Assembly (NCBI RefSeq): GCF_049514155.1
Contig: NZ_JBEKVH010000012.1
Coordinates: 1,316-65,315, forward strand
DNA from: Roseiarcus sp.
GTDB taxonomy: Bacteria > Pseudomonadota > Alphaproteobacteria > Rhizobiales > Beijerinckiaceae
Direction: 5' to 3'
Length of the DNA stretch: 64,000 bases
The notes beneath the pieces are model-generated. The model had not been told where the DNA came from, searched no databases, and saw only the letters and a program-made list of their open reading frames with translations. Numbering within the stretch: position 1 is the first letter of the stretch; every line of letters begins with the position of its first letter. Both the position numbers and the translations under genes were made by a program. Shown here in pieces: positions 3,408 through 15,142 of this stretch.

Positions 3408-3755
3408 TCAGGCCGTGACGGCGCCGCCGCGCGCCCGCCAGCCATTCATGCCGCCTGGATAGTGTCGGACGTGGGTCGCGCCGGCGGCGTGCGCCTGGCG
3501 CAACGCCGCGCCCGAGCGCGCGCCCGCCTGGCAGATCAGCACCGGCGGCTTGCCGGCCGGAATCTGATCGGGTTTGAATCGCGATAACGGCAAATTGATC
3601 GCGCCTGGGATATGGCCGCCGGCGAATTCGTGCGGCTCGCGCACGTCGACGACGGTCACGCCGCCCTCGCTGACCGCCTTCTGCAACTCGTCATGGCCGA
3701 CGTCGCGCGGCGACGCGTTCGGATCGGACTTGCCGAATAGACTGGAGAAGATCAT
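3408..3755 (-). CDS. single-domain rhodanese (sulfurtransferase)
   Basis: 115 aa. VVDVREPHEFAGGHIPGAINLP and the active-site loop ICQAGARSG (Cys-X5-type rhodanese loop). Starts 6 nt after the upstream CMD gene stop. Confidence 0.85.
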   Translation of the reverse strand: MIFSSLFGKSDPNASPRDVGHDELQKAVSEGGVTVVDVREPHEFAGGHIPGAINLPLSRFKPDQIPAGKPPVLICQAGARSGAALRQAHAAGATHVRHYPGGMNGWRARGGAVTA

Positions 3756-3761
3756 CGCAGG

Positions 3762-4133
3762 TCATCCACGGTTGGCCGAAGCGGCTTTGGCCGCCTCGAA
3801 CTGGGTGAAGGCGCCGAGGGCGTGGCTCGCGTACATGGCGGAAGGTCCAGCCCCCATGTAGATCGCCATGCCGAGGGTTTCGAGGACTTCGTCGCGCGTC
3901 GCGCCCTGTTCGACCGCCGCCTTGGTGTGGAATGCGACGCAATCGTCGCAGCGGGTCGCCACGGCGATCGCCAGAGCGATGAGCTCCTTGGTCTTGACGT
4001 CGAGCGCCCTGGGGGTGAGCGCGGCCTGGGCGATCGTTGAAAACGCCTTCATCACGTCGCTCGCGCCGGCGCGCAAATTCTTGAGTTCGGCGCTGAGCTC
4101 CTGCGCCGTCTCCGGCCAATCGGTCTTGCCCAT
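3762..4133 (-). CDS. carboxymuconolactone decarboxylase (AhpD-like) family protein with CxxC
   Basis: ATG at 4133 preceded by AAGGAG. 123 aa containing the AhpD-core motif RCDDCVAFH (CxxCxxxH). The longer track ORF (to 4688) overlaps the RND gene and is Arg-rich junk upstream of this ATG. Confidence 0.85.
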   Translation of the reverse strand: MGKTDWPETAQELSAELKNLRAGASDVMKAFSTIAQAALTPRALDVKTKELIALAIAVATRCDDCVAFHTKAAVEQGATRDEVLETLGMAIYMGAGPSAMYASHALGAFTQFEAAKAASANRG

Positions 4134-4156: not shown

Positions 4157-7100
4157 TCACGAAGAGGTCGGGGCGGGGCGCTCGTCGTCGCGCAGCCAGA
4201 CGTAGATCGCCGGAATGACCAGCAGGGTCAGCGCGGTCGACGAAGCGAGTCCGAACACCAGCGAAATCGCCAGGCCCTGGAAGATCGGGTCGGCGAGGAT
4301 GAAGGCCGAGCCGATCATCGCCGCCGCAGCGGTGAGCACGATCGGCTTGACCCGCGCCGCGCCAGCGTCGATCAGCGCTGCGCGCAGCTCGGCGCCTTCG
4401 GCGCGCCGGCGACGAATAAAGTCGACCAGCAGGATCGAGTTGCGCACAATGATGCCGGCGAGCGCGATGAAGCCAATCATCGAGGTCGCGGTGAATGCGG
4501 CGCCGAGCCACCAATGGCCGAGCAAGATGCCGATCAGCGTCAGCGGCACCGGCGTCAGGATCACCAGCGGCAGCTTGAATGAACCGAATTGCGCGACGAC
4601 CAGCAGATAAATGCCGAGGATCGCCACCATGAACGCCGCGCCCATGTCGCGGAAGGTCACATAAGTGACCTCCCATTCGCCATCCCACAGCAGGGTCGGC
4701 GCGGCGTCGTTTTCCGGTTGGCCGTGATAGCGGATCGCCGGCGCGCCGTCCTTGCCCCAGTCCTGCCTCGCCATTTCGCCTTCGATCGCCAGCATGGCGT
4801 AGATCGGCGCCTCGAAGCGGCCGGCGACATCGGCCGTCACCATCTCGGCGAAGCGTCCGTTGTGGCGGAAGATCGGATAGGAGGCGGGCTCGCGCGTCAG
4901 CCTGACGACGTCGCCGAGCTCGACGTTGGCGCCTTGGCGAACTGTGCCGCCCGCCGGCAGCGGGGTCGACAGGATGCGCTCGTCGGGCGTGCGCGCCGAG
5001 AGGGGTAGGGCGACGGAGATGTCGATCGGCTTGAGTCCGTCGCCGCGCTGCGAAAAGCCGATCGGCGCGCCGCCGAGCAAGCCGGCGATGGTGTCGTAGA
5101 CCGCCTGTTCCTCGACGCCGTGAAACTCGAGCGCCTCCTGATCGATCGAGATGCGCAGGCGTTCGGCCGGCTTGGGAAAACTGTCGTCGACGTCGACGAC
5201 GAAGTCGACCGCCGCGAAGGCCTTTCGCACTTTCGCCGCGATCGTGCGACGGCTCGCCGCGTCGGGGCCATAGATCTCGGCGAGCACCGTGGCGAGCACC
5301 GGCGGACCGGGCGGGACCTCGACCACTTTGAGGGCCGTGCCGGCGGGCAGCGGCAGGTCGGCGAGGCGGCGCCGAATGTCGAGGGCGATGGCGTGGCTCG
5401 CGCGCCTGCGCATCCCTTTGTCGACCAGATTAACGGCGAGATCGCCCTGCTGCGGTTCGTCGCGCAGGTAGTAATGGCGCACCAGGCCGTTGAAGTTGAA
5501 CGGCGCCGCCGCGCCGACGTAGGCTTGGATCGAGGTCAGCTCCGGGAGGTTCTTGAGCCGCTCGGCGGCGGCCATCAGCGCGCGGTCGGTCTCCTCCAGC
5601 GCCGTTCCTTGCGGCAGGTCGAGCACGACCTGGATTTCCGACTTGTTGTCGAACGGCAGTAGCTTGACTCGCACGTTCTCGGTGGCGAACAGCGCGCAGG
5701 CAGCGACGGTCGCGAGGCCGACAGCCAGCAGGAAGACTTGCGAGCGGCGTCGGCCGCGCAAGAGGGGAGTGGCGACCCTCGAATAGAGCCGGCCGAGCGC
5801 GCCGATGTCGTGCGCATGGCCCTCGCTGTGTTCGATCTTGCCGGCGTGACGGCCGGCGATGTGCAGTAGCAGCCACGGCGTGACTGTGACCGCGACGCCG
5901 AACGAGAACAGCATCGCGATCGAGGCGTTGGCCGGGATCGGGCTCATGTAGGGGCCCATCATGCCGCTGACGAACATCATCGGCAGCAGCGCGGCGACGA
6001 TCGTCAAGGTCGCGATGACGGTCGGATTGCCGACTTCGGCGACGGCCTCGACCGCAGTCTCGACCAAGCCGCGCTCGCCGCGCATCGACCAATGCCGGGC
6101 GATGTTCTCGACCACCACGATCGCGTCGTCGACGAGAATGCCGATCGAAAAGATCAGTGCGAACAGGCTGACGCGGTTGATCGTGTAGCCCATCAGCCAC
6201 GAGGCGAACATCGTCATTAGGATGGTGGTGGGGATGACGATGAACACCACCACGCCTTCGCGCCAGCCGATGGCGAAGGCGATCAGGGCGACAATCGACA
6301 GCGTGGCGAGGCCGAGATGGAACAGCAATTCGTTGGCCTTCTCGGTCGCGGTCGCGCCGTAGTTGCGCGTGACCGTGACTTCGAGACCTGGCGGAATGAT
6401 GCGGCCCTTGACGATCTCGAGGCGATGCAGCGCGTCGTCGGCCACCGCGACAGCATTGGCGCCTTTTCGCTTGGCGATCGCGAGCGTGACGGCTGGTCTG
6501 CGCTGAAGATCGCCGTTGTCGAGCTTGGTCATCGTCCAAGCGCGATGATCCGGCTCGGCGGCGCCGACCACGACATTGGCGACGTCCTTGACGTAGACGG
6601 GTCGGCCGTCGCGCGTGGTCAGCAGCAGCAAGCCGATGTCGGGCACGCCCTGCAAGGTCTGGCCGACGACGACGGGCAGCGAGCGGCCGTCCTCGCGCAG
6701 CGCGCCGACGACGAACGAGCGGTTGGCGTTGGCGAGCTTGTCGACCAGCTGGTTGAGCGTGACGCCGTAGAGCGCGAGCCGCTCGGGGTCGGGCTCGACG
6801 CGGATCTGGTTGCGGCTGCCGCCGACGATGTAGGTTCCGCCGACGTTGTCGACTTTGGCGAGTTCGTGCTGCAGCTCGTCGGCGACCTGATAGAGGCCGT
6901 TATCGGTCCATTGGCCGGCGTGGGCGGGGTCCGCCGACAGCGTCAGGTCGACGATGGCGACGTCGTTGACGCCGCGACCGACAATCACCGGCTCGGGGAT
7001 TCCCTTGGGCAGCGCGACGATGTTGGCGCGGATCTTCTCGTGGATGCGCAGGAGCGCGACGTCTTCGTCGGTCCCGACCAGGAAGCGCGCGGTGACGACG

Positions 7101-7381
7101 ACCTTATCGTCCTGGGTCTGCGAATAGACGTGCTCGACGCCGTCGATGCCCTTGACGATGTCCTCGAGCGGTCGGGTGACGAGCTCGACCGCATCTGCGG
7201 CCTTGTAGCCGTTGGTCGTCACCATGATGTCGACCATCGGCACGCTGATCTGCGGCTCTTCCTCGCGCGGCAGCGAAACGAGGGCGAGGGCGCCGGCGGC
7301 GAGCGCCGCCAGCAGCAGCAGCGGCGTCAGCGGCGAATTGATGAAGACGCGGGTCAGCGCGCCAGAGATGCCGAGCTTCAT
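4157..7381 (-). CDS. RND efflux transporter permease subunit (AcrB/HAE-like)
   Basis: 1074 aa with a 12-TM/two-large-loop architecture. TM4 proton-relay motif GILVDDAIVVVEN. Its start overlaps the adaptor stop (ATGA). Confidence 0.95.
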   Translation of the reverse strand: MKLGISGALTRVFINSPLTPLLLLAALAAGALALVSLPREEEPQISVPMVDIMVTTNGYKAADAVELVTRPLEDIVKGIDGVEHVYSQTQDDKVVVTARFLVGTDEDVALLRIHEKIRANIVALPKGIPEPVIVGRGVNDVAIVDLTLSADPAHAGQWTDNGLYQVADELQHELAKVDNVGGTYIVGGSRNQIRVEPDPERLALYGVTLNQLVDKLANANRSFVVGALREDGRSLPVVVGQTLQGVPDIGLLLLTTRDGRPVYVKDVANVVVGAAEPDHRAWTMTKLDNGDLQRRPAVTLAIAKRKGANAVAVADDALHRLEIVKGRIIPPGLEVTVTRNYGATATEKANELLFHLGLATLSIVALIAFAIGWREGVVVFIVIPTTILMTMFASWLMGYTINRVSLFALIFSIGILVDDAIVVVENIARHWSMRGERGLVETAVEAVAEVGNPTVIATLTIVAALLPMMFVSGMMGPYMSPIPANASIAMLFSFGVAVTVTPWLLLHIAGRHAGKIEHSEGHAHDIGALGRLYSRVATPLLRGRRRSQVFLLAVGLATVAACALFATENVRVKLLPFDNKSEIQVVLDLPQGTALEETDRALMAAAERLKNLPELTSIQAYVGAAAPFNFNGLVRHYYLRDEPQQGDLAVNLVDKGMRRRASHAIALDIRRRLADLPLPAGTALKVVEVPPGPPVLATVLAEIYGPDAASRRTIAAKVRKAFAAVDFVVDVDDSFPKPAERLRISIDQEALEFHGVEEQAVYDTIAGLLGGAPIGFSQRGDGLKPIDISVALPLSARTPDERILSTPLPAGGTVRQGANVELGDVVRLTREPASYPIFRHNGRFAEMVTADVAGRFEAPIYAMLAIEGEMARQDWGKDGAPAIRYHGQPENDAAPTLLWDGEWEVTYVTFRDMGAAFMVAILGIYLLVVAQFGSFKLPLVILTPVPLTLIGILLGHWWLGAAFTATSMIGFIALAGIIVRNSILLVDFIRRRRAEGAELRAALIDAGAARVKPIVLTAAAAMIGSAFILADPIFQGLAISLVFGLASSTALTLLVIPAIYVWLRDDERPAPTSS

Positions 7382-8343
7382 GGCGCGACCAGCGCGTCGC
7401 CGTCGGCGAGGCCGGCGAGAATCTCGATCGCGTCGCCGTGGCGCTCGCCGGGCTGGACGACGACCTCGGACCCGTCCGCGGTCTTGACGTAGTTGACCCC
7501 GGCGCGGCGGAAGACGAAGGCGGCGGGCACGACAATGACGCGCCGCGCCCCGGCCGAGACCCAGGCCAGCGTGCGTTCGCCGACGAAATAGTCACCGAGG
7601 CCGGGCACTTCGACGTCGGCGATGACGCGGCCGCCCTGAATCTCGGGGTACACGGTCGTCACGCGGCCTTCGCGCCGGGTTTCGTCCGTCAACTCGGTGA
7701 GGCCGCGTGAGCCGATCTGCACCTTGTCGCCGGCGCGCATGAACTGCGCATGGCGTTCAGGCAGTTGCAGGCGCAGGATGTAGCGATCCTCGGCGAGGGT
7801 GGCGACGGTTTCGCCGGGCATGACGACGCGCCCTTCTGAAACCGGTACCGAGAGAATGCGGCCGGCGCCGGGCGCGAGCACAGCGCCCTCGCTCATCTGC
7901 TGGGCGATGACGCTGCGGTCGCCGCGCATCGCGTCGAGATTGCGTTCAGCGACATCGTAGGCGGTGCGGGCGGCGTCGACCTGGACCTGCGCGCTGACGC
8001 CCTTGCGCAGCAATTCGTCAACGCGGTCGAGATCCGTCTTGGCCTTGTCGACCTGCGCCTGCTGCGATTCAATGCGGGCGTCGAGCGCCTGCATCTGCAG
8101 CACGAGCTTGGGGTCGGCGACGGTCGCGAGTTCCGCGCCGGCCTCGGCGCGTTCGCCCTCTTTTGCCTTGAGCGAGACGATCGTGCCGCCGAGCCGCGCA
8201 CGGGCGACGAGCTGATGGACGGGCTCGACGGTGGCGACGACCGCCTTCTGATCCTGGACCTCGACCGCATGGACGACGATTCGATCCGCCGCAAAAGCGG
8301 CCTGAGGCAAGGCGATGGCGGCGATCAGCAACAGGCGGCGCAT
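7378..8343 (-). CDS. RND efflux periplasmic adaptor (MFP/HlyD family)
   Basis: ATG at 8343 preceded by GGAGGGGAG. Signal peptide MRRLLLIAAIALPQAAFA, coiled-coil hairpin region and C-terminal beta-barrel-like region typical of membrane fusion proteins. The GTG at 8370 in the track would sit inside the promoter. Confidence 0.9.
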   Translation of the reverse strand: MRRLLLIAAIALPQAAFAADRIVVHAVEVQDQKAVVATVEPVHQLVARARLGGTIVSLKAKEGERAEAGAELATVADPKLVLQMQALDARIESQQAQVDKAKTDLDRVDELLRKGVSAQVQVDAARTAYDVAERNLDAMRGDRSVIAQQMSEGAVLAPGAGRILSVPVSEGRVVMPGETVATLAEDRYILRLQLPERHAQFMRAGDKVQIGSRGLTELTDETRREGRVTTVYPEIQGGRVIADVEVPGLGDYFVGERTLAWVSAGARRVIVVPAAFVFRRAGVNYVKTADGSEVVVQPGERHGDAIEILAGLADGDALVAP

Positions 8344-8363: not shown

Positions 8364-8397
8364 TTGACACATATATTCGGATATTCTAATTTAGCAA
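8364..8397. promoter_or_regulatory. overlapping divergent sigma70-like promoters sharing an AT-rich operator (arsR1 operon / RND operon)
   Basis: Plus strand: TTGACA (8364-8369), 17 nt, TAATTT (8387-8392), which puts the TSS at or next to the arsR1 ATG at 8400. Minus strand: TTGCTA (8397-8392), 16 nt, TATATG (8375-8370). Both spacers contain ATTAGAATA (minus, 8390-8382), identical to an arm of the sqr palindrome. Confidence 0.5.
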
Positions 8398-8399
8398 GC

Positions 8400-8744
8400 A
8401 TGAATTTAGAGGAGCTGGAAAGTCAGGCGGGCGCGGCGGAGGGCCTGCTCAAGGCGGTCGCCAATCGCCGCCGGCTGACGATCCTGTGTGAACTGTCGCG
8501 CGGCGAACGTTCTGTGTCGGATCTGGGCGAGGCGATCGGACTGAGCCAATCGGCGCTGTCGCAGCATCTCGCGCGGCTGCGCGCCGACCGCATCGTCGCG
8601 ACTCGGCGCGAGTCGCAGACGATCTACTATTCGCTGGAGAGCGAGCGCGTCAGGAAGCTGATCGACCTGCTCTACCAGCTCTATTGCGCGCCCGAATGCG
8701 GCGTCGAAACGAAAGCCAAAGAACAAGGAGAGGCGAAGCGATGA
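8400..8744 (+). CDS. ArsR-family regulator, two-Cys YgaV/BigR/SqrR type (paralog 1)
   Basis: 114 aa. wHTH core RRLTILCEL...LSQSALSQHLARLR. Cys30 (ILC) and Cys96 (LYCAP) are 66 residues apart, as in BigR C42/C108 and SqrR C41/C107. There is no ELCVCDL metal site. No SD upstream, so the transcript is possibly leaderless. Confidence 0.85.
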   Translation: MNLEELESQAGAAEGLLKAVANRRRLTILCELSRGERSVSDLGEAIGLSQSALSQHLARLRADRIVATRRESQTIYYSLESERVRKLIDLLYQLYCAPECGVETKAKEQGEAKR

Positions 8745-8944
8745 CGATCGACAAGGCGGTGATGGCGTTCGCGGGGACGGTGGTTCTGTTTAGCTTGGGG
8801 CTTTCGCTGTGGCTCAGCCTCTATTGGCTGCTGCTGACAGCTTTCGTCGGGCTCAATCTGCTGCAGGCCTCGTTCACCGGCTTCTGCCCGCTGGCGATTG
8901 CGCTGCGGTGCGTCGGCGTGCGGCCCGGTCAGGCGTTTCGCTGA
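8741..8944 (+). CDS. YgaP-like transmembrane domain protein (DUF2892)
   Basis: The ATG at 8741 overlaps the arsR1 stop (ATGA). 67 aa with two TM helices and the FTGFCPLAIAL motif characteristic of DUF2892, the C-terminal domain of E. coli YgaP. Confidence 0.6.
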   Translation: MTIDKAVMAFAGTVVLFSLGLSLWLSLYWLLLTAFVGLNLLQASFTGFCPLAIALRCVGVRPGQAFR

Positions 8945-8972
8945 CGCGCGGGCCGCGCAAAGGAGGTCAGTG

Positions 8973-9359
8973 ATGAACTACTATCTCTCGCGTTCGGTCG
9001 CGCTGGATTTCGAGGCGGCGGTCGCCAAGACGATCGCGGCGCTCAAGGCCGAGGGCTTCGGCGTGTTGACCGACATCGACATCGCCGCGACGCTGAAGCA
9101 GAAGCTCGGCGTCGACTTCCGCAAGTATCGCATTCTCGGCGCCTGCAATCCTCCGCTGGCGCACAAGGCGCTTTCCGCCGACGACAAGATCGGCGTGATG
9201 TTGCCGTGCAACGTCATCGTGCAGGAGAGGGCGGAAGGGGGCGCGGAACTGGCAGCGATCGATCCGCGCGCGGCGATGCAGCGGGTCGGCAACCCGGCGC
9301 TCTCGGCGGTCGCCGAAGAAGTCGCTGAGCGACTGTCGCGCGCGCTGCAAGCGGTCTGA
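8973..9359 (+). CDS. DUF302 domain protein
   Basis: ATG at 8973 preceded by AAAGGAGG. FGVLTDIDIAATLKQKLG...YRILGACNPPLAHKAL...IGVMLPCNVIV fits the DUF302 pattern. Confidence 0.8.
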   Translation: MNYYLSRSVALDFEAAVAKTIAALKAEGFGVLTDIDIAATLKQKLGVDFRKYRILGACNPPLAHKALSADDKIGVMLPCNVIVQERAEGGAELAAIDPRAAMQRVGNPALSAVAEEVAERLSRALQAV

Positions 9360-9371
9360 TCGACCTGCGCA

Positions 9372-9399
9372 GGCCGACGAAATCCTTGGGTCGGCTTTT
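9372..9399 (+). terminator. Rho-independent terminator of the arsR1-DUF2892-DUF302 operon
   Basis: GCCGAC (9373-9378), an 11-nt loop, GTCGGC (9390-9395), followed directly by TTTT (9396-9399). Lies 13 nt after the DUF302 stop. Confidence 0.55.
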
Positions 9400-9485
9400 G
9401 GCGGCGCTCGTTTGCGTGTAATGAGGACCCAGGCGCGAAAAGCGCGCCCGCCGCGGCTGCGCCGCGGTCTCGCACGGGAGCGATC

Positions 9486-9866
9486 ATGGACAAGCGCGTC
9501 GCAGCTAAGGCGCAGGTCGCGCCCGGCGGAGCGCGCTTGGCGATTGATCCGACCGAACTCGGCGCTCACGCCGAAGCCGCAGCGGCGTTGTTGCGCGCGA
9601 TGAGCGGCAAGGCGCGGCTGCTGGTGCTGTGCAATCTCGTGCACGGCGAGCGTTCGGTCGGCGAGCTGCAACGCATCGTCGGCCTCAGCCAGTCGGCGCT
9701 GTCGCAGCATCTGGCGGTGCTCAGGCGCTCGAAGTTGGTCGAGACGCGCCGCGAAACGCAGACGATCTATTATCGCTTGGCCGGCGGCGCGGCTGCGGCG
9801 GTGCTCGAGACGCTGCACGGCATCTATTGCGCGCCCCCGGCGGGCGGCAAATCGCGCGGCCGCTGA
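9486..9866 (+). CDS. ArsR-family regulator, two-Cys YgaV/BigR/SqrR type (paralog 2)
   Basis: 126 aa with SD GGGAG. ARLLVLCNL...LSQSALSQHLAVLR...GIYCAPP. Cys49 and Cys115 are again 66 residues apart. Confidence 0.85.
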   Translation: MDKRVAAKAQVAPGGARLAIDPTELGAHAEAAAALLRAMSGKARLLVLCNLVHGERSVGELQRIVGLSQSALSQHLAVLRRSKLVETRRETQTIYYRLAGGAAAAVLETLHGIYCAPPAGGKSRGR

Positions 9867-11308
9867 GTCGCGCCCTCCGGCGCGTACCAGTTCAGCTTCT
9901 CGCGCAGCGACACGACTGTGCCGACGATGACGATCGTTGGGCCACGCAGGTTCGCCGCGCGCGCCTTGGCGGCGAGGTCGGCGAGCGTCCCGACGACGAC
10001 GCGCTGGTTCACGCGCGCGCCGTTGTCGATGATCGCCGCGGGCAGGGCGGGGTCGCCGCCGCGGGCGACGAAGGCCTGCATCAGCTCTTCAACACGGTCG
10101 AGACCCATGTAGATCGCGACGGTCTGGTTGGGCTTGATCAGCGTTTCCCAGTCGAGATCGAGCGGGCCGTCGCGGCCATGACCGGTGACGAAGACGCAAG
10201 CCTGGGCGTGGTCGCGATGGGTCAGCGGGATGCCGGCATAGGCGGCGCAGGCGGTCGCGGCGGTGACGCCGGGACAGACCTGGAACGGGATGCCGTGTTC
10301 GGCGAGCTTTTCGATCTCTTCGCCGCCGCGGCCGAAGATGAATGGGTCGCCGCCTTTGAGCCGCAGCACCCGCTTGCCCTCGCGCGCGAGCCTGACCAGC
10401 AGATCGCTGATCTCTTCCTGTGGCAGCGCGTGGTCGGCGCGGCGCTTGCCGACATAGATGCGCTCGGCCTCGCGCCGCGCGAGATCGACGATGCTCGGAT
10501 CGACCAGCCGGTCGTAGAGCACGACGTCGGCCTTCTGCATCAGTCTGAGCGCGCGGAAGGTCAACAGGTCGGCATCGCCCGGACCGGCGCCGACGAGATA
10601 GACCTCGCCGAGCCACGGGCCTTCGCCGCTTTCCGTAGCGCGATCGAGAGCCTCGACGAGTGCGGCCTCGGCGGCCGGTTCGTTGCGGGCGAGCGCCAGC
10701 TCGGCGATCGGCCCGTCGAGGACGCGCTCCCAGAAGCGCCGCCGCGCGACCGGCGAGCGCAGCTTGCTGTTGACCTGCGCGCGCATGCGGCCGGCGAAGG
10801 CGGCGAGCCGGCCGTAGGCGGCGGGGATCAGCGTTTCCAGCCGAGCGCGCAGCATTCGCCCAAGAAGCGGCGAAGCGCCGCCGGTTGAGACCGCGACGAC
10901 GAGCGGCGCGCGGTCGAGGATCGAGGGTGAAATGAAATCGCTGAGATCGGAGCGGTCGGCGACGTTGATCGGCGGGCCGGCGCCGGCGAGCGCGGCGTGG
11001 AGCCGTTCGTCGGCGGCGGGATCGCCGGTCGCGATATAGCAGACGAGGCAGCCGGCGAGATCGGCGTGCGCCGGCTCGCGCGCGACATGGGTGAAGGCGA
11101 AGCGCTCGCTGAGCGGCGCGAACTCCTCCTCGTCGAGCCGCGGCGCGTAGATCGAGACGAGCGCGCCGGCGCGCGCCAGCGTTTCGACGCGGCGCGCCGC
11201 GACAAGACCGCCGCCGACGACCGCCGCTTTCTGACCGCAGGCGCGCAGGAACATCGGCAGGTAGGGCGTCGTCGCCGCGGCCGCGGGATCGGGACCGTCT
11301 TCGCTCAT
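9824..11308 (-). CDS. cysG: siroheme synthase (uroporphyrinogen-III C-methyltransferase / precorrin-2 dehydrogenase / ferrochelatase)
   Basis: 494 aa. N-terminal Rossmann segment KAAVVGGGLVAARR and C-terminal SUMT domain VYLVGAGPGDADLLTFRALRLMQKADVVLYDRLV...GGDPFIFGRGGEE. Confidence 0.9.
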   Translation of the reverse strand: MSEDGPDPAAAATTPYLPMFLRACGQKAAVVGGGLVAARRVETLARAGALVSIYAPRLDEEEFAPLSERFAFTHVAREPAHADLAGCLVCYIATGDPAADERLHAALAGAGPPINVADRSDLSDFISPSILDRAPLVVAVSTGGASPLLGRMLRARLETLIPAAYGRLAAFAGRMRAQVNSKLRSPVARRRFWERVLDGPIAELALARNEPAAEAALVEALDRATESGEGPWLGEVYLVGAGPGDADLLTFRALRLMQKADVVLYDRLVDPSIVDLARREAERIYVGKRRADHALPQEEISDLLVRLAREGKRVLRLKGGDPFIFGRGGEEIEKLAEHGIPFQVCPGVTAATACAAYAGIPLTHRDHAQACVFVTGHGRDGPLDLDWETLIKPNQTVAIYMGLDRVEELMQAFVARGGDPALPAAIIDNGARVNQRVVVGTLADLAAKARAANLRGPTIVIVGTVVSLREKLNWYAPEGATQRPRDLPPAGGAQ

Positions 11309-11335
11309 CAGCGCCTCATGGAGTCGCGCATCGGC

Positions 11336-12337
11336 TCAGGCCGCATCGGCGAGGCGGGCGCGATTGCGCGCGCGCCACAGCGCCTTGGCCCGCGCCCCGG
11401 CAGCGGCGGGATCGCGCTCGACGCCGAGCGTCGCCAGCGCGATCGCGACGGTGCCGATGATCGCCGCGGTCGCGTATTCGTCCTGTGTCTCGCCACGCCA
11501 CAGCGCCGCGAGGCGGTCGAGATCGAGGTTTTCATCGGGAATTGCGTGTGGGTCATCGAGCAGCGGCGGCCAGCGCGTTTCGCCGGCTGCGCCGTCGGCG
11601 ACGGTGAGTGTTTCGCACGGCTTGTTGGGCCGCCGCTCCGCTTCGCCGCCTTCGCCGCGGAACACCGTCATGCGCGCTTCGTCGAGCCTGAGCGCGGCGT
11701 CGCGGTGGATCGCCATGTAGCCGGGATGGAACACCGACTGGATCGAAGCCGGCGCGCCAAATGGATTGACGAGCCGCGCCAGCGTGTGGACCGGCGAGCG
11801 CAGGCCGAGGATCGTGCGCAAGGCGAATAGCTCGGCGAGCCGCGGGCAGAAGGCGTCGAGCGGCAGATAGACGAAATTGCGCGCTTCGAGATGGGCGGCG
11901 GCTTCGTCGAGGTCGGCGGCGATCGGCAGGCCGAGGCGGGCGATCGCCTCGCGTGTGTAAAGGCGCCCGGCGGTGTGGCCTTCGAGCCCGTGCATCGCGA
12001 CGCGCCAGCCGGCGTCGGCGAGCGTCAGCGCCGCGAGCAGGAACCACGGCAGGCGCCGGCGCTTGCCGGCGTAGCTCGGCCAGTCGAGGTCGGCGCGGAT
12101 CGCCGGCTTGGACAGGGTCGCGCGGACAGCGCGCACGAAACCAGCGATCTCGTCGCCGGTCTCCTCCTTGACCCTGAGCAGCATCAGGAAGGCGCCGATC
12201 TGCTCGGGTCGCGCGCCGCCGGCGAGGATCATCGCCATCGCTTCTTCGGCCTCGGCGAGCGTCAGGGCGCGCGTCAGCGACTTGCCGCGACCGAGAACGG
12301 CGATGAATCGCGCGAAAGGATGCGGTTCGGTTGCCAA
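11336..12337 (-). CDS. TrpD-like glycosyl transferase family 3 protein (anthranilate phosphoribosyltransferase-like), start uncertain
   Basis: The C-terminal roughly 330 aa of the 791-aa track ORF look genuine (PFARFIAVLGRGKSLTRALTLAEAEEAMAMILAGGARPEQIGAFLMLLRVKEET...). I chose the TTG at 12337. The only in-frame ATG (12520) would translate through the AT-rich sqr operator, and a GTG at 12445 has no SD. The gene stops 27 nt before cysG. Confidence 0.6.
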   Translation of the reverse strand: MATEPHPFARFIAVLGRGKSLTRALTLAEAEEAMAMILAGGARPEQIGAFLMLLRVKEETGDEIAGFVRAVRATLSKPAIRADLDWPSYAGKRRRLPWFLLAALTLADAGWRVAMHGLEGHTAGRLYTREAIARLGLPIAADLDEAAAHLEARNFVYLPLDAFCPRLAELFALRTILGLRSPVHTLARLVNPFGAPASIQSVFHPGYMAIHRDAALRLDEARMTVFRGEGGEAERRPNKPCETLTVADGAAGETRWPPLLDDPHAIPDENLDLDRLAALWRGETQDEYATAAIIGTVAIALATLGVERDPAAAGARAKALWRARNRARLADAA

Positions 12338-12476
12338 GGGAATCGATTGCGTTTCCGGGCGTCGTGCGCCGGCGGCGACGCTAGCGGAATGCGCCGGGGC
12401 GGGGAAGGGCGCCGGCGCCGCGACCGCCGCCGGGCCGCCGCCCACGCCGAAAGACGCACAGGGCGACCCTAGACAA

Positions 12477-12500
12477 ATTAGAATAACATGATATTCTAAT
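12477..12500. promoter_or_regulatory. perfect 9-6-9 inverted repeat ATTAGAATA-acatga-TATTCTAAT, candidate ArsR/SqrR-type operator in the sqr / trpD-like-cysG divergent region
   Basis: Read directly from the sequence as an AT-rich island in GC-rich DNA. It overlaps a plausible sqr promoter: TTAGAA (12478-12483), 16 nt, TATATG (12500-12505). The minus-strand 11-mer TATTCTAATTT (12485-12475) is identical to plus-strand 8382-8392 at the arsR1 promoter. Confidence 0.6.
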
Positions 12501-12556
12501 ATATGCAGCAGGCCGACCATGGCCGCGCGAGACGGGGAAACGCAGGAGAGGGAAAG

Positions 12557-13840
12557 GTGGCTGAAATCGTCATCATGGGCGCCGGACTTGGCGGCGCCGT
12601 CATGGCCTACGAAATGAAGGACCAGATGCGGCCGCAGGACAAGCTGACGGTCGTCACCAAGGACCCGATCTATCATTTCGTCCCGTCGAACCCGTGGGTC
12701 GCGGTCGGTTGGCGTTCTCGCCAGGCGGTCGAGGTCGACCTCGCCCCGACGCTGGCCAAGCGCGGGATCACCTTCAAGCCGGTGCCGGTGGTCAAGGTGT
12801 TTCCCAACGAGAACCGCCTGGAGCTCGCCGACGGTTCGGCGATCCGTTACGACTACCTCGTCATCGCTACCGGTCCCGAGCTCGCCTTTGACGAGATCGA
12901 GGGCCTCGGTCCCGACGCCAACACCTCGTCGATCTGCCACATCGACCACGCGTTGAAGGCCGGCGTCAGCTTCGAGGAGTTCTGCAAGAATCCCGGCCCG
13001 ATCGTCACCGGCGCGGTGCAGGGCGCCTCGTGCTTCGGCCCCGCCTACGAGTTCACCTTCATCCTCGAGACCGAACTCAGGCGTCGCCGCATTCGCGACC
13101 GCGTGCCGATGACCTTTGTCACCGCCGAGCCGTATATCGGCCATCTCGGTCTCGATGGCGTCGGCGACACCAAGGGCCTGCTCGAGAGCGAAATGCGCGA
13201 GCACCACATCAAGTGGATCACCAGCGCGCGGGTGAAAAAGGTCGAGCCGGGCAAGATGACGATCGAGGAAGTCGCCGACGACGGCTCGGTCAAGGCGACG
13301 CGCGAGTTGCCGTTCGCCTATTCGATGATGCTGCCCGCCTTCCGCGGCATCGCGCCGCTGCGCGGGATCGACGGCCTCGTCAATCCGCGCGGCTTCGTCG
13401 TCGTCGACAAGCACCAGCAGAACCCGAAATATCCGAATGTCTTCGGCGTCGGCGTGTGCGTCGCGATTGCGCCGGTCGGACCGACGCCGGTGCCATGCGG
13501 CGTGCCGAAGACGGGCTTCATGATCGAGTCGATGGTCACCGCGACCGCGCTCAACATCGGCCAGATGCTGCGCGGCGAGAAGCCGACCCACCAGGGGACC
13601 TGGAATGCCGTCTGCCTCGCCGACTTCGGCGATTCCGGCGTCGCCTTCGTCGCCCAGCCGCAAATCCCGCCGCGCAACGTCAACTGGTCGTCGTCGGGCC
13701 GGTGGGTGCACGCGGCCAAGCTGGGTTTCGAGAAGTATTTCCTGCGCAAGATGCGCAAAGGCGCGAGCGAGCCCTTCTACGAGTCGGCAGCGTTGAAGAT
13801 GCTCGGTATCGACAAGCTGAAGACGGTGACGACCGACTGA
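12557..13840 (+). CDS. sqr: sulfide:quinone oxidoreductase, type I
   Basis: GTG at 12557 preceded by GGAGAGGGAAAG. FAD fold IVIMGAGLGGA. Three Cys in SQR-typical contexts: SSICHIDH, GASCFGPAYEF and WNAVCLADFG (about positions 127/159/353, against 128/160/356 in the A. ferrooxidans enzyme). Confidence 0.9.
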   Translation: MAEIVIMGAGLGGAVMAYEMKDQMRPQDKLTVVTKDPIYHFVPSNPWVAVGWRSRQAVEVDLAPTLAKRGITFKPVPVVKVFPNENRLELADGSAIRYDYLVIATGPELAFDEIEGLGPDANTSSICHIDHALKAGVSFEEFCKNPGPIVTGAVQGASCFGPAYEFTFILETELRRRRIRDRVPMTFVTAEPYIGHLGLDGVGDTKGLLESEMREHHIKWITSARVKKVEPGKMTIEEVADDGSVKATRELPFAYSMMLPAFRGIAPLRGIDGLVNPRGFVVVDKHQQNPKYPNVFGVGVCVAIAPVGPTPVPCGVPKTGFMIESMVTATALNIGQMLRGEKPTHQGTWNAVCLADFGDSGVAFVAQPQIPPRNVNWSSSGRWVHAAKLGFEKYFLRKMRKGASEPFYESAALKMLGIDKLKTVTTD

Positions 13841-13862
13841 TTGCGGCCGGGGCGGCGTGCGG

Positions 13863-14213
13863 TCACGGGCCCGCGCCGTCCTTGGGCGCGCAAAACATCT
13901 CGTGGACCGCCGCCAGCATCGTTCGGATTTCTTCGTTCGCCAGGCGATAGTGGACGGTCGCGCCGTCGCGCCGGGCGGCCACCAGATTCTCGAGCCTGAG
14001 CCGCGCCAATTGCTGCGACACGGTCGACTGCCGCTGCGACAGGAACGCCTCCAGCTCGCCGACCGATTTCTCGCCGCCGGCGAGCGCGCACAGGATCAAC
14101 AGCCGCGATTCCTGCGCCAGCGCCTTGAGGAACACGCTCGCCTCGCGCGCCTTGCCGACCATCGCATCGAGGTCGACCGGCGTTTCGAACGCGCGCGGCG
14201 GTTGGGGCTTCAT
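13863..14213 (-). CDS. ArsR-family regulator, two-Cys YgaV/BigR/SqrR type (paralog 3)
   Basis: 116 aa. SRLLILCAL...QRQSTVSQQLARLR...EMFCAPKD. Cys42 and Cys108 match BigR in both numbering and 66-residue spacing. Convergent with sqr across a 22-nt gap. Confidence 0.85.
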   Translation of the reverse strand: MKPQPPRAFETPVDLDAMVGKAREASVFLKALAQESRLLILCALAGGEKSVGELEAFLSQRQSTVSQQLARLRLENLVAARRDGATVHYRLANEEIRTMLAAVHEMFCAPKDGAGP

Positions 14214-14287
14214 CGGCTTCGTCCCGGCGATTCAGAGGTCCGAGCCGAAGCTAGCGGCGACATCGAGGTCGGTAAAGCCGGCCGCGA

Positions 14288-15142
14288 TCACGCGGCGAGC
14301 CGCCAGATCCGCGTCGCGTTGCCGCGGAACAGTCGCGTCTGTTCGTCGAGGCTGCTGCCCTTGACGATGGCGTGAGTCGCCGCGACCCAGATCGACAGCG
14401 AGGCGGTCTGCGTGCATACCGGCCAGTCGCTGCCCCAGACGACGCGGTCCCAACCGAAGCTGGCGATCGCGTGCTCGACGTAGGGGCGAATGTCATCGAG
14501 CGTCCAGCTTTCCGCGTCGGCGTAGGCGACGACGCCGGAAATCTTCACCGCAACGTTCGGTCGACGCGCGATCTCGACGATCCGCTCGCGCCACAGGTGC
14601 TCCTCGCGCTCTTTGATCTTCGGCGCGCCGCAATGGTCAAGGACGAACTGCACGTCAGGGCAGAGGTCGACGAGCGCAATCGCTTTGTCGATCTGGTCGG
14701 AGCGGACGCAGAGGTCGAACGGACGTCCGGTCCCCGAGAGCCGCGCGACGTTGACGCGGAAGAGCGGCGACAGACTCACGCCGTCGGGGACGACATGCAG
14801 CACGCGGCGGAAGCCCTTGACCAGCGGATTGGCGAGCTGGCGCTCGAGAAAGGCAGGAAAGTCCGCGCGCTCGGGTCGGCATGAGCTGATCGCGCCGATC
14901 AGCGGGCTCTTTGGCCGGGCCGCGAGGCGCTTCACCTGTTCCGACTCGGCCTCGATCTGATTTTCGGCGACGTCGACTTCCATGTGCAGCGCCGATCCGA
15001 TGCCGCAGCGAAACGCTTCCGCCTGATAGCGTTCGAGCCGGAAGTCGTGGTTCAGCGCCGGAACGTCGGCGAGCCAGGGATAGGCGAGGACGCTGCGGTC
15101 GATGAGGTGGAGGTGGGTGTCGAGGATGCTCGGATAGGTCAT
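14288..15142 (-). CDS. amidohydrolase family protein (amidohydrolase_2 / lactonase-like)
   Basis: 284 aa. N-terminal ILDTHLHLID metal-binding motif and C-terminal WGSDWP motif typical of the amidohydrolase 2 family. Confidence 0.75.
   Translation of the reverse strand: MTYPSILDTHLHLIDRSVLAYPWLADVPALNHDFRLERYQAEAFRCGIGSALHMEVDVAENQIEAESEQVKRLAARPKSPLIGAISSCRPERADFPAFLERQLANPLVKGFRRVLHVVPDGVSLSPLFRVNVARLSGTGRPFDLCVRSDQIDKAIALVDLCPDVQFVLDHCGAPKIKEREEHLWRERIVEIARRPNVAVKISGVVAYADAESWTLDDIRPYVEHAIASFGWDRVVWGSDWPVCTQTASLSIWVAATHAIVKGSSLDEQTRLFRGNATRIWRLAA

Follow-up and report, generated by a model that had tools for sequence, protein, structure and literature searches.

Why should three regulators of one type lie within 6 kb of each other, around a single gene for sulfide:quinone oxidoreductase (SQR)? 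The question is raised by a 64-kb stretch of DNA from Roseiarcus sp. (contig NZ_JBEKVH010000012.1, positions 1,316 to 65,315 of the forward strand), which is the window analysed here and in which three small ArsR/SmtB proteins, called regulators A, B and C below, accompany sqr. Persulfide-sensing ArsR repressors are a well-studied case of ligand specificity arising from a simple Cys pair. How several such sensors share the work in one cell is a question raised by Hyphomicrobium denitrificans, where sHdrR and SoxR, two related sulfane-sulfur-responsive ArsR repressors, have overlapping regulons and where it is undecided whether they work as two homodimers or as a heterodimer (PMC10451225, PMC12423496). 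The original prediction saw in the Roseiarcus trio the sign of a layered or ligand-differentiated circuit around one SQR. Our analysis favours another answer, to which we assign a probability of about 0.62: A, B and C would be three genuine repressors of the persulfide-sensing clade, from three subclades and each with its own sulfur module, that have been brought close together by gene loss.

Three predicted persulfide-sensing repressors

Regulator A (8400-8744, plus strand) is an ArsR/SmtB protein of 114 residues with Cys30 and Cys96 and falls in an HlyU-like subclade. Regulator B (9486-9866, plus strand, 126 residues) carries Cys49 and Cys115, and regulator C (13863-14213, minus strand, 116 residues), an orthologue of SqrR, carries Cys42 and Cys108. 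They are the only members of this two-Cys ArsR subfamily in the window. The coordinates and the Cys pairs were as predicted, and the LxxLC and (Y/F)CAP motifs were indeed found in all three proteins. Other parts of the description had to be amended. The two-Cys label does not strictly fit A, which has a third cysteine, C100 (YCAPEC), kept in close A orthologues, and is thus a three-Cys protein. The helix-2 and helix-5 cysteines are offset by 66 positions in each protein, as announced, but 65 residues, not 66, lie between them. The recognition-helix pattern S(Q/T)(S/V)SQ(H/Q)L describes C (STVSQQL) but not A and B, which both read SQSALSQHL. The 11-residue core of this helix, LSQSALSQHLA, is identical in A and B, and the helix of C is SqrR-like.

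Two departures from the Cys pair were seen among the homologues. The A-type orthologues of Hyphomonadaceae and Caulobacterales (L070 12008-12289, L078 11944-12240 and L079 13222-13518) lack the canonical helix-5 Cys and have a Cys three residues earlier (VLCEFY), and in one Cypionkella regulator (L035 1467-2150) a Ser replaces the helix-2 Cys. These may be variants of altered or lost sensing.

Family assignment was carried out with profile models and with phmmer searches against solved structures. All three proteins matched Pfam PF01022 HTH_5 (A 50.5, B 41.3 and C 41.0 bits, cut-off 22) and passed the generic NCBIfam ArsR/SmtB model NF033788 with 78-84 bits (cut-off 55). Their best specific NCBIfam model was that of BigR, NF040642 (A 86.7, B 93.6 and C 84.9 bits). 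Orthology to BigR was rejected, since these 85-94 bits remain below the equivalog cut-off of 155, and A, B and C are thus considered to be relatives of BigR and not its orthologues. The best structural matches were HlyU, SqrR, BigR and YgaV, together with NolR (E 1e-14 to 5e-27), and similarity to solved structures (E about 1e-27) fixes the predicted fold. C matched Rhodobacter capsulatus SqrR best (6o8l, E 4.5e-27, gapless), while A and B matched Vibrio HlyU best (E 5e-27 and 1e-22), followed by NolR, SqrR, BigR and YgaV. In gapless alignments, both cysteines of each protein fell on the sensing cysteines of R. capsulatus SqrR (6o8l), Xylella BigR (3pqj), Vibrio HlyU (3jth, 4k2e) and Escherichia coli YgaV (3cuo). 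The proposed homology to the BigR/SqrR sensing pair therefore holds, the cysteines standing in the same columns. SqrR, BigR, HlyU and YgaV make up the persulfide-sensing ArsR clade, cluster 4 of a sequence similarity network (PMC10054925), and the persulfide chemistry of SqrR and HlyU has been described (10.1101/2020.03.22.001966, PMC10054925).

The claim that an arsenite or metal site is missing was borne out. The sequences of A, B and C have no helix-3 CxC, nor any Cys at all in helix 3, and they lack the helix-5 metal motif D-x-H...H-x-x-E/H, helix 5 containing at most one His. The metal sensors SmtB, CzrA, NmtR and CadC were far weaker structural matches (E 1e-11 or worse). The identity of a metal or arsenite sensor was rejected on sequence, for want of the helix-3 and helix-5 motifs. 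Full-length homologues of B at 84-97% identity are numerous, and of the 120 listed nearly every one has the two Cys; C has retained both Cys and is 63-68% identical to its orthologues in the nearest genomes. We thus classify A, B and C, from their sequences, as genuine ArsR/SmtB repressors of the persulfide-sensing clade and as predicted sensors, with a Cys each in helix 2 and helix 5.

It is highly unlikely that one or more of the three responds to something other than sulfane sulfur, as a NolR-like ligand-independent repressor, a sensor of peroxide or disulfide stress, or a sensor of metals serving the RND pump encoded next to A. NolR of Sinorhizobium (PDB 4omy) scores high against A (E 4.6e-22) and B (E 2.9e-19) and ranks among the top structural-database matches of A. 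The operators described below contain ATTAG/CTAAT elements, and the (A/T)TTAG elements upstream of A resemble the NolR motif. The distance from the BigR equivalog cut-off, the extra Cys100 near Cys96 of A and the weak matches of the pump genes to CzcA/CzcB-type models point in the same direction. NolR is not known to need a ligand; A and B have the conserved sensing Cys pair and sulfur genes as neighbours, and there is no nodulation context. Against this explanation, the Cys pair is conserved in all three regulators and in their orthologues, metal-site motifs are missing, the nearest characterised relatives (SqrR, HlyU, BigR and YgaV) are all reactive-sulfur sensors, and the pump operon contains a rhodanese gene and keeps its synteny with sqr throughout dozens of genomes.

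Relatedness of the three regulators

If the trio were the product of a recent tandem duplication, its members should resemble each other more than they resemble homologues from other genomes. Pairwise identities were 48.5% for A-B, 39.6% for A-C and 38.9% for B-C, compared to 56% between A and V. vulnificus HlyU and 55% between C and SqrR; B was 48-50% identical to HlyU, BigR and YgaV. Regulators from 80 related sqr loci were placed, along with the reference proteins, in a neighbour-joining tree with 200 bootstraps, and in none of these were A, B and C sisters. C grouped with L007/L008, which represent the two nearest genomes, in 99.5% of the bootstraps and with SqrR in 74%, and A clustered with the Roseiarcus regulator L013 in 71%. 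Recent tandem duplication was rejected on these grounds. The three proteins are indeed paralogues, as had been claimed, but not recent copies: their sequences place them as deep paralogues from three different subclades.

The likeness of C to SqrR extends to its gapless alignment with both sensing Cys in register, to a nearly identical recognition helix (QSTVSQQLARLR versus QAAVSQQLARLR) and to its position beside a type-I-like sqr, SqrR being the persulfide-responsive repressor of sqr. It differs from SqrR in being dispensable in close strains that retain sqr. A and B have the same fold and Cys pair as HlyU, YgaV and BigR, along with the SQSALSQHL recognition helix of HlyU, and the YgaP-like transmembrane gene that follows A recalls ygaVP. 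In contrast to BigR of Xylella/Acinetobacter and to HlyU, there is no adjacent blh/PDO gene and no hemolysin target here; A has Cys100, and the partner genes encode DUF2892 and DUF302 proteins and an RND pump accompanied by CMD and rhodanese. By sequence, A and B are relatives and not orthologues of HlyU, YgaV and BigR.

One genome per species was scanned for SQR relatives, which yielded 80 loci from other species, each taken as sqr plus or minus 10 kb where the contig allowed. The window SQR is 66-88% identical to the proteins of these alphaproteobacterial loci. One two-Cys ArsR regulator was present in 47 of the 80, two were present in 2 and three in none, indicating that the trio is unusual. 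Most related sqr loci have a single regulator together with SQR-DUF2892-MFP-RND. The remark in the original prediction that most described systems use one such regulator has to be qualified: H. denitrificans uses two related ones (PMC10451225, PMC12423496). Several two-Cys ArsR paralogues in one sulfur region are common to both organisms, each in the context of a hyphomicrobial alphaproteobacterium, with 42% identity between the paralogues there and 39-49% here. The Cys50/Cys116 pair of H. denitrificans has, by residue number, the same spacing as Cys49/Cys115 of B, and B-like genes of relatives lie inside dsr-type sulfur-oxidation clusters. The systems differ in that three regulators are present here instead of two, and in that they accompany sqr, an RND pump and cysG here but sox and shdr there.

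Separable modules and a larger dsr-type island

Each regulator of the window belongs to a module of its own. Module A consists of A as first gene, followed by the genes for a DUF2892/YgaP-like transmembrane protein (8741-8944, plus strand), syntenic with sqr in most related loci, and for a DUF302 protein (8973-9359, plus strand). It is divergent from an operon on the minus strand that starts with the periplasmic adaptor of the RND pump (MFP, 7378-8343) and continues with the RND permease (4157-7381), which is syntenic with sqr across Alphaproteobacteria, a CMD/AhpD-like gene (3762-4133) and a single-domain rhodanese as last gene (3408-3755). In module B, regulator B stands tail to tail with cysG, for the siroheme synthase CysG (9824-11308, minus strand), upstream of which lies a TrpD2/YbiB-like gene of glycosyl transferase family 3 (11336-12445, minus strand). 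Module C pairs C with sqr (12557-13840, plus strand, Pfam Pyr_redox_2), the two being convergent. The sulfur-related genes of the locus (sqr, rhodanese, DUF2892/YgaP-like transmembrane protein, DUF302 and CMD) show like synteny in many genomes.

These modules recur separately. In dozens of Alphaproteobacteria (L020-L086), among them Bradyrhizobium, Mesorhizobium, Rhodobacter/Tabrizicola, Xanthobacter, Alsobacter and Caulobacterales, a conserved module combines SQR, the DUF2892/YgaP-like transmembrane protein and an MFP-RND pump with one two-Cys ArsR; the window pump operon has the CMD/AhpD-like and rhodanese genes in addition. Each of the three regulator subclades is found alone beside sulfur genes in other genomes. 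That regulators of this kind lie beside sqr, rhodanese and RND pumps had already been noted (PMC10451225, PMC12423496).

Homologues of B and A then led to closer relatives, and among strains of the same lineage (B 84-86% identical) four combinations were seen. A, B and C accompany sqr in the window, L001 and L002. A and B accompany sqr without C in L087 and two JGI contigs, A and B are present without sqr and C in L090 and L091, and B is alone, A and the pump being deleted, in L088 and L089. B is the one regulator present in every strain variant, always tail to tail with cysG. A blastn comparison of L090 with the window showed that the sqr operator, sqr and C behave as one block (12414-14236), in place of which L090/L091 have 24 bp. 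This deletion variant tells us that trpD2-cysG does not need the sqr-palindrome element described below, and nothing more. Its use as an indicator of the protein that binds the palindrome was rejected for lack of discrimination, because the operator is lost together with the promoter whichever protein binds.

In more distant relatives the regulators are spread over a larger region. L094 has the pump operon and A-like-DUF2892-DUF302, then DsrE, TusA, a flavoprotein, an outer-membrane protein and DsrE, followed by B-like, DsrC, cysG and a DsrN-like amidase, with 6.6 kb between A-like and B-like. In a sister metagenome-assembled genome (contig_83916), DUF2892-DUF302 lies at the edge of L092 and B-like is part of a dsr-type cluster that also holds TrpD2-like, DsrP-, DsrO- and DsrL-like genes, while sqr-SulP-C-amidohydrolase is found about 20 kb further along the same contig. 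The distance from B-like to C-like in relatives is about 23 kb, within the larger dsr-type island, and the nearest relatives of B are themselves located in dsr-type sulfur-oxidation clusters. The cysG and TrpD2/YbiB-like genes of relatives (L092 10367-19831; L094 17018-20339) are likewise inside such a cluster, among DsrE, TusA, DsrC, CbiA/DsrN-like and NrfD/DsrP-, DsrO- and DsrL-like genes. We know of no role of the TrpD2-like protein in dsr-type clusters. The dsr genes that accompany B-like in these genomes are missing from the window, where cysG-TrpD2-like may be a remnant of the siroheme branch of the cluster.

Taken together, the strain combinations and the larger island of the relatives make the trio look like a compaction by gene loss. 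In the simplest reading, intervening genes of an ancestral sulfur island were lost and the regulators of three sub-modules were thereby brought together within 6 kb. Since each regulator stands in its own separable module, the locus is best seen as a compacted sulfur island and not as a new type of circuit. The arrangement is rare; the proteins are of a known family, and the locus brings no new mechanism by itself, as the proteins, their neighbours (sqr, rhodanese and RND pump) and a multi-regulator sulfur island all have precedents.

Operator-like sites in the pump and sqr promoters

Two AT-rich operator-like sites were recognised in the region, one in the promoter shared by A and the pump operon and the other in the sqr promoter. 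The 56 bp between A and MFP read TTGACA-CATATATTCGGATATTC-TAATTT-AGCAAGC-ATG, that is TTGACA, 17 nt and TAATTT ahead of the ATG at 8400. This divergent promoter-operator, which we call the A-box (8364-8399), includes ATTCGGATATTCTAAT (8375-8390), a box of the SqrR type with 1 mismatch; the window as a whole is not enriched in such boxes. It also includes the short palindrome CTAATTTAG. Conservation of the A-box, in particular of CTAATTTAGCAAG(C/T)ATG, extends to the sequences upstream of A-type genes in L013, L070, L078, L079, L087-L091 and L094. In L088/L089 (9540-9680), the full A-box and the first codons of A are kept ahead of the DUF2892 gene.

The sqr promoter (12470-12500) is made up of TAGACA, 16 nt and TG-n-TATTCT. 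It is overlapped by a palindrome, ATTAGAATAACA/TGATATTCTAAT at 12477-12500, located between -35 and -10 and built as GAAT-N8-ATTC (TTAGAATA-N6-TATTCTAA). The two sites have the 11-mer GATATTCTAAT in common. Exact copies of ATTCTAAT, one of them at 8383-8390 in the A-box, occur 3 times in 64 kb compared to 0.16 expected; none of 100 shuffles reached 3, and all copies are in the A/pump and sqr promoters. Two operators sharing the 11-mer and a helix core identical in A and B make some cross-regulation plausible from sequence, for example by A and/or B acting on sqr besides C. The candidate regulators of sqr could accordingly be C, or A and B, or all three.

These shared features also speak for an integrated three-tier circuit, in which A, B and C would have evolved to control jointly a single regulon centred on SQR, each with its own threshold for sulfane sulfur or combined in A/B/C heterodimers. 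In addition, the sqr operator of the window lineage has A-box-like half-sites, while in the nearest genomes with only C (L007-L009) the stretch from -35 to -10 of sqr contains ATTC-N8-GAAT-like boxes; some strains retain sqr with A and B in the absence of C; and the overlapping regulons of sHdrR and SoxR in H. denitrificans, for which a heterodimer is discussed, offer a precedent. We nevertheless regard such a circuit as unlikely. Close strains carry three, two or one of the regulators, which are thus separable, every subclade is found alone with sulfur genes elsewhere, and in relatives the regulators are dispersed over tens of kb. For the same reasons, and given that A, B and C are deep paralogues, the layered circuit of the original prediction, taken as purpose-built, was not supported.

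A related and distinctly doubtful idea is that the sqr promoter was rewired in this lineage, the classical SqrR box giving way to a palindrome of A-box half-sites, so that both sqr and the pump/rhodanese operon come under up to three sensors (C plus A and B with their identical helix core, the latter two possibly as A/B heterodimers). This would allow a graded or fail-safe response, and the wild strains lacking C, or A and C, would be natural "deletion mutants". The locus offers a compact natural test bed for cross-talk, operator specificity and heterodimer formation: its three sensors represent three subclades, no more than two operators can be recognised, and wild variants carry three, two or one sensor.

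Several observations weigh against compaction of three persulfide-responsive modules. The published SqrR site is ATTC-x8-GAAT, the "sqr box" (10.1101/2020.03.22.001966), and no exact ATTC-N8-GAAT box was found in the window; with 1 mismatch, 8 were found for 13.4 expected, which is no enrichment. The sqr palindrome here, GAAT-N8-ATTC, has its half-sites in the reverse order, so that binding of C to it is not assured. The window sequence shows no AT-rich operator ahead of either B or C. The RND and MFP genes give weak matches to CzcA/CzcB-type models, which leaves room for a link to metals. As to the history of the locus, the placement of B in the tree is weak (30% bootstrap), and the ancestral trio is pieced together from L094 and L092/L007: no A-like gene of the sister genome was found among the best 120 homologues of A, and its presence there is deduced from DUF2892-DUF302 at the L092 edge and from the equivalent L094 locus.

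The missing operators upstream of B and C also bear on whether B, C or both are redundant remnants nearing loss, their targets having gone with the decay of the dsr-type island. C is absent from several close strains that retain sqr, and the dsr companions of B-like in relatives are not found in the window. Against such decay, B is intact, is retained in all strain variants and has many full-length homologues with both Cys at 84-97% identity; C has kept both Cys and its 63-68% identity to the orthologues of the nearest genomes, and neither gene contains frameshifts or stops. We consider this explanation very improbable. When the sequence upstream of B was aligned from four strains, the only conserved block was GC-rich, TTTGCGTGTA(A/G)T.

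Proposed mechanism

How would three repressors of a compacted island work? Membership of the family, the homologous cysteines, the modules, their variation among strains and the sites resembling operators are observed; the ligand, the repression and the distribution of the regulators over the sites we infer by homology with SqrR, BigR and HlyU. Reduced dimers would occupy the AT-rich operators over -35 and -10 of the sqr and of the divergent A/pump promoters. Sulfane sulfur derived by SQR from sulfide would bridge the two Cys as a tri- or tetrasulfide, and the bridged repressor would be released from DNA. Derepression would then raise the levels of SQR, of the rhodanese/CMD/RND operon for export or handling, and of the DUF2892 and DUF302 proteins. 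B may have cysG-TrpD2-like as its target, a candidate to which no site yet points.

Other features of the locus

The start of sqr required attention. The longest open reading frame and the metagenome gene call begin at ATG 12503 (445 aa), but all 80 homologues align from GTG 12557. We therefore retained the form of 427 aa (VAEIVIMGAGLGG), whose GTG is preceded by the ribosome-binding site GGAGAGGG. Upstream of A (8364-8402), 7 nt separate the end of the -10-like TAATTT from the ATG, and a Shine-Dalgarno sequence is missing. This suggests that the A transcript is leaderless.

A terminator scan found no intrinsic terminator between DUF302 and B, the hairpin there being no better than in shuffles (z -1.1). 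B and cysG are convergent and their 3' ends overlap by 43 bp (9824-9866), constantly so in all strain variants; this overlap could give rise to transcriptional interference or antisense effects. Beyond C lies an amidohydrolase gene (14288-15142, minus strand). The 74-bp gap after it contains a GC-rich inverted repeat just upstream of C (14216-14251), with arms of 12 nt that are 83% complementary and 12 nt apart. This repeat could form a hairpin or serve as a site for another regulator.

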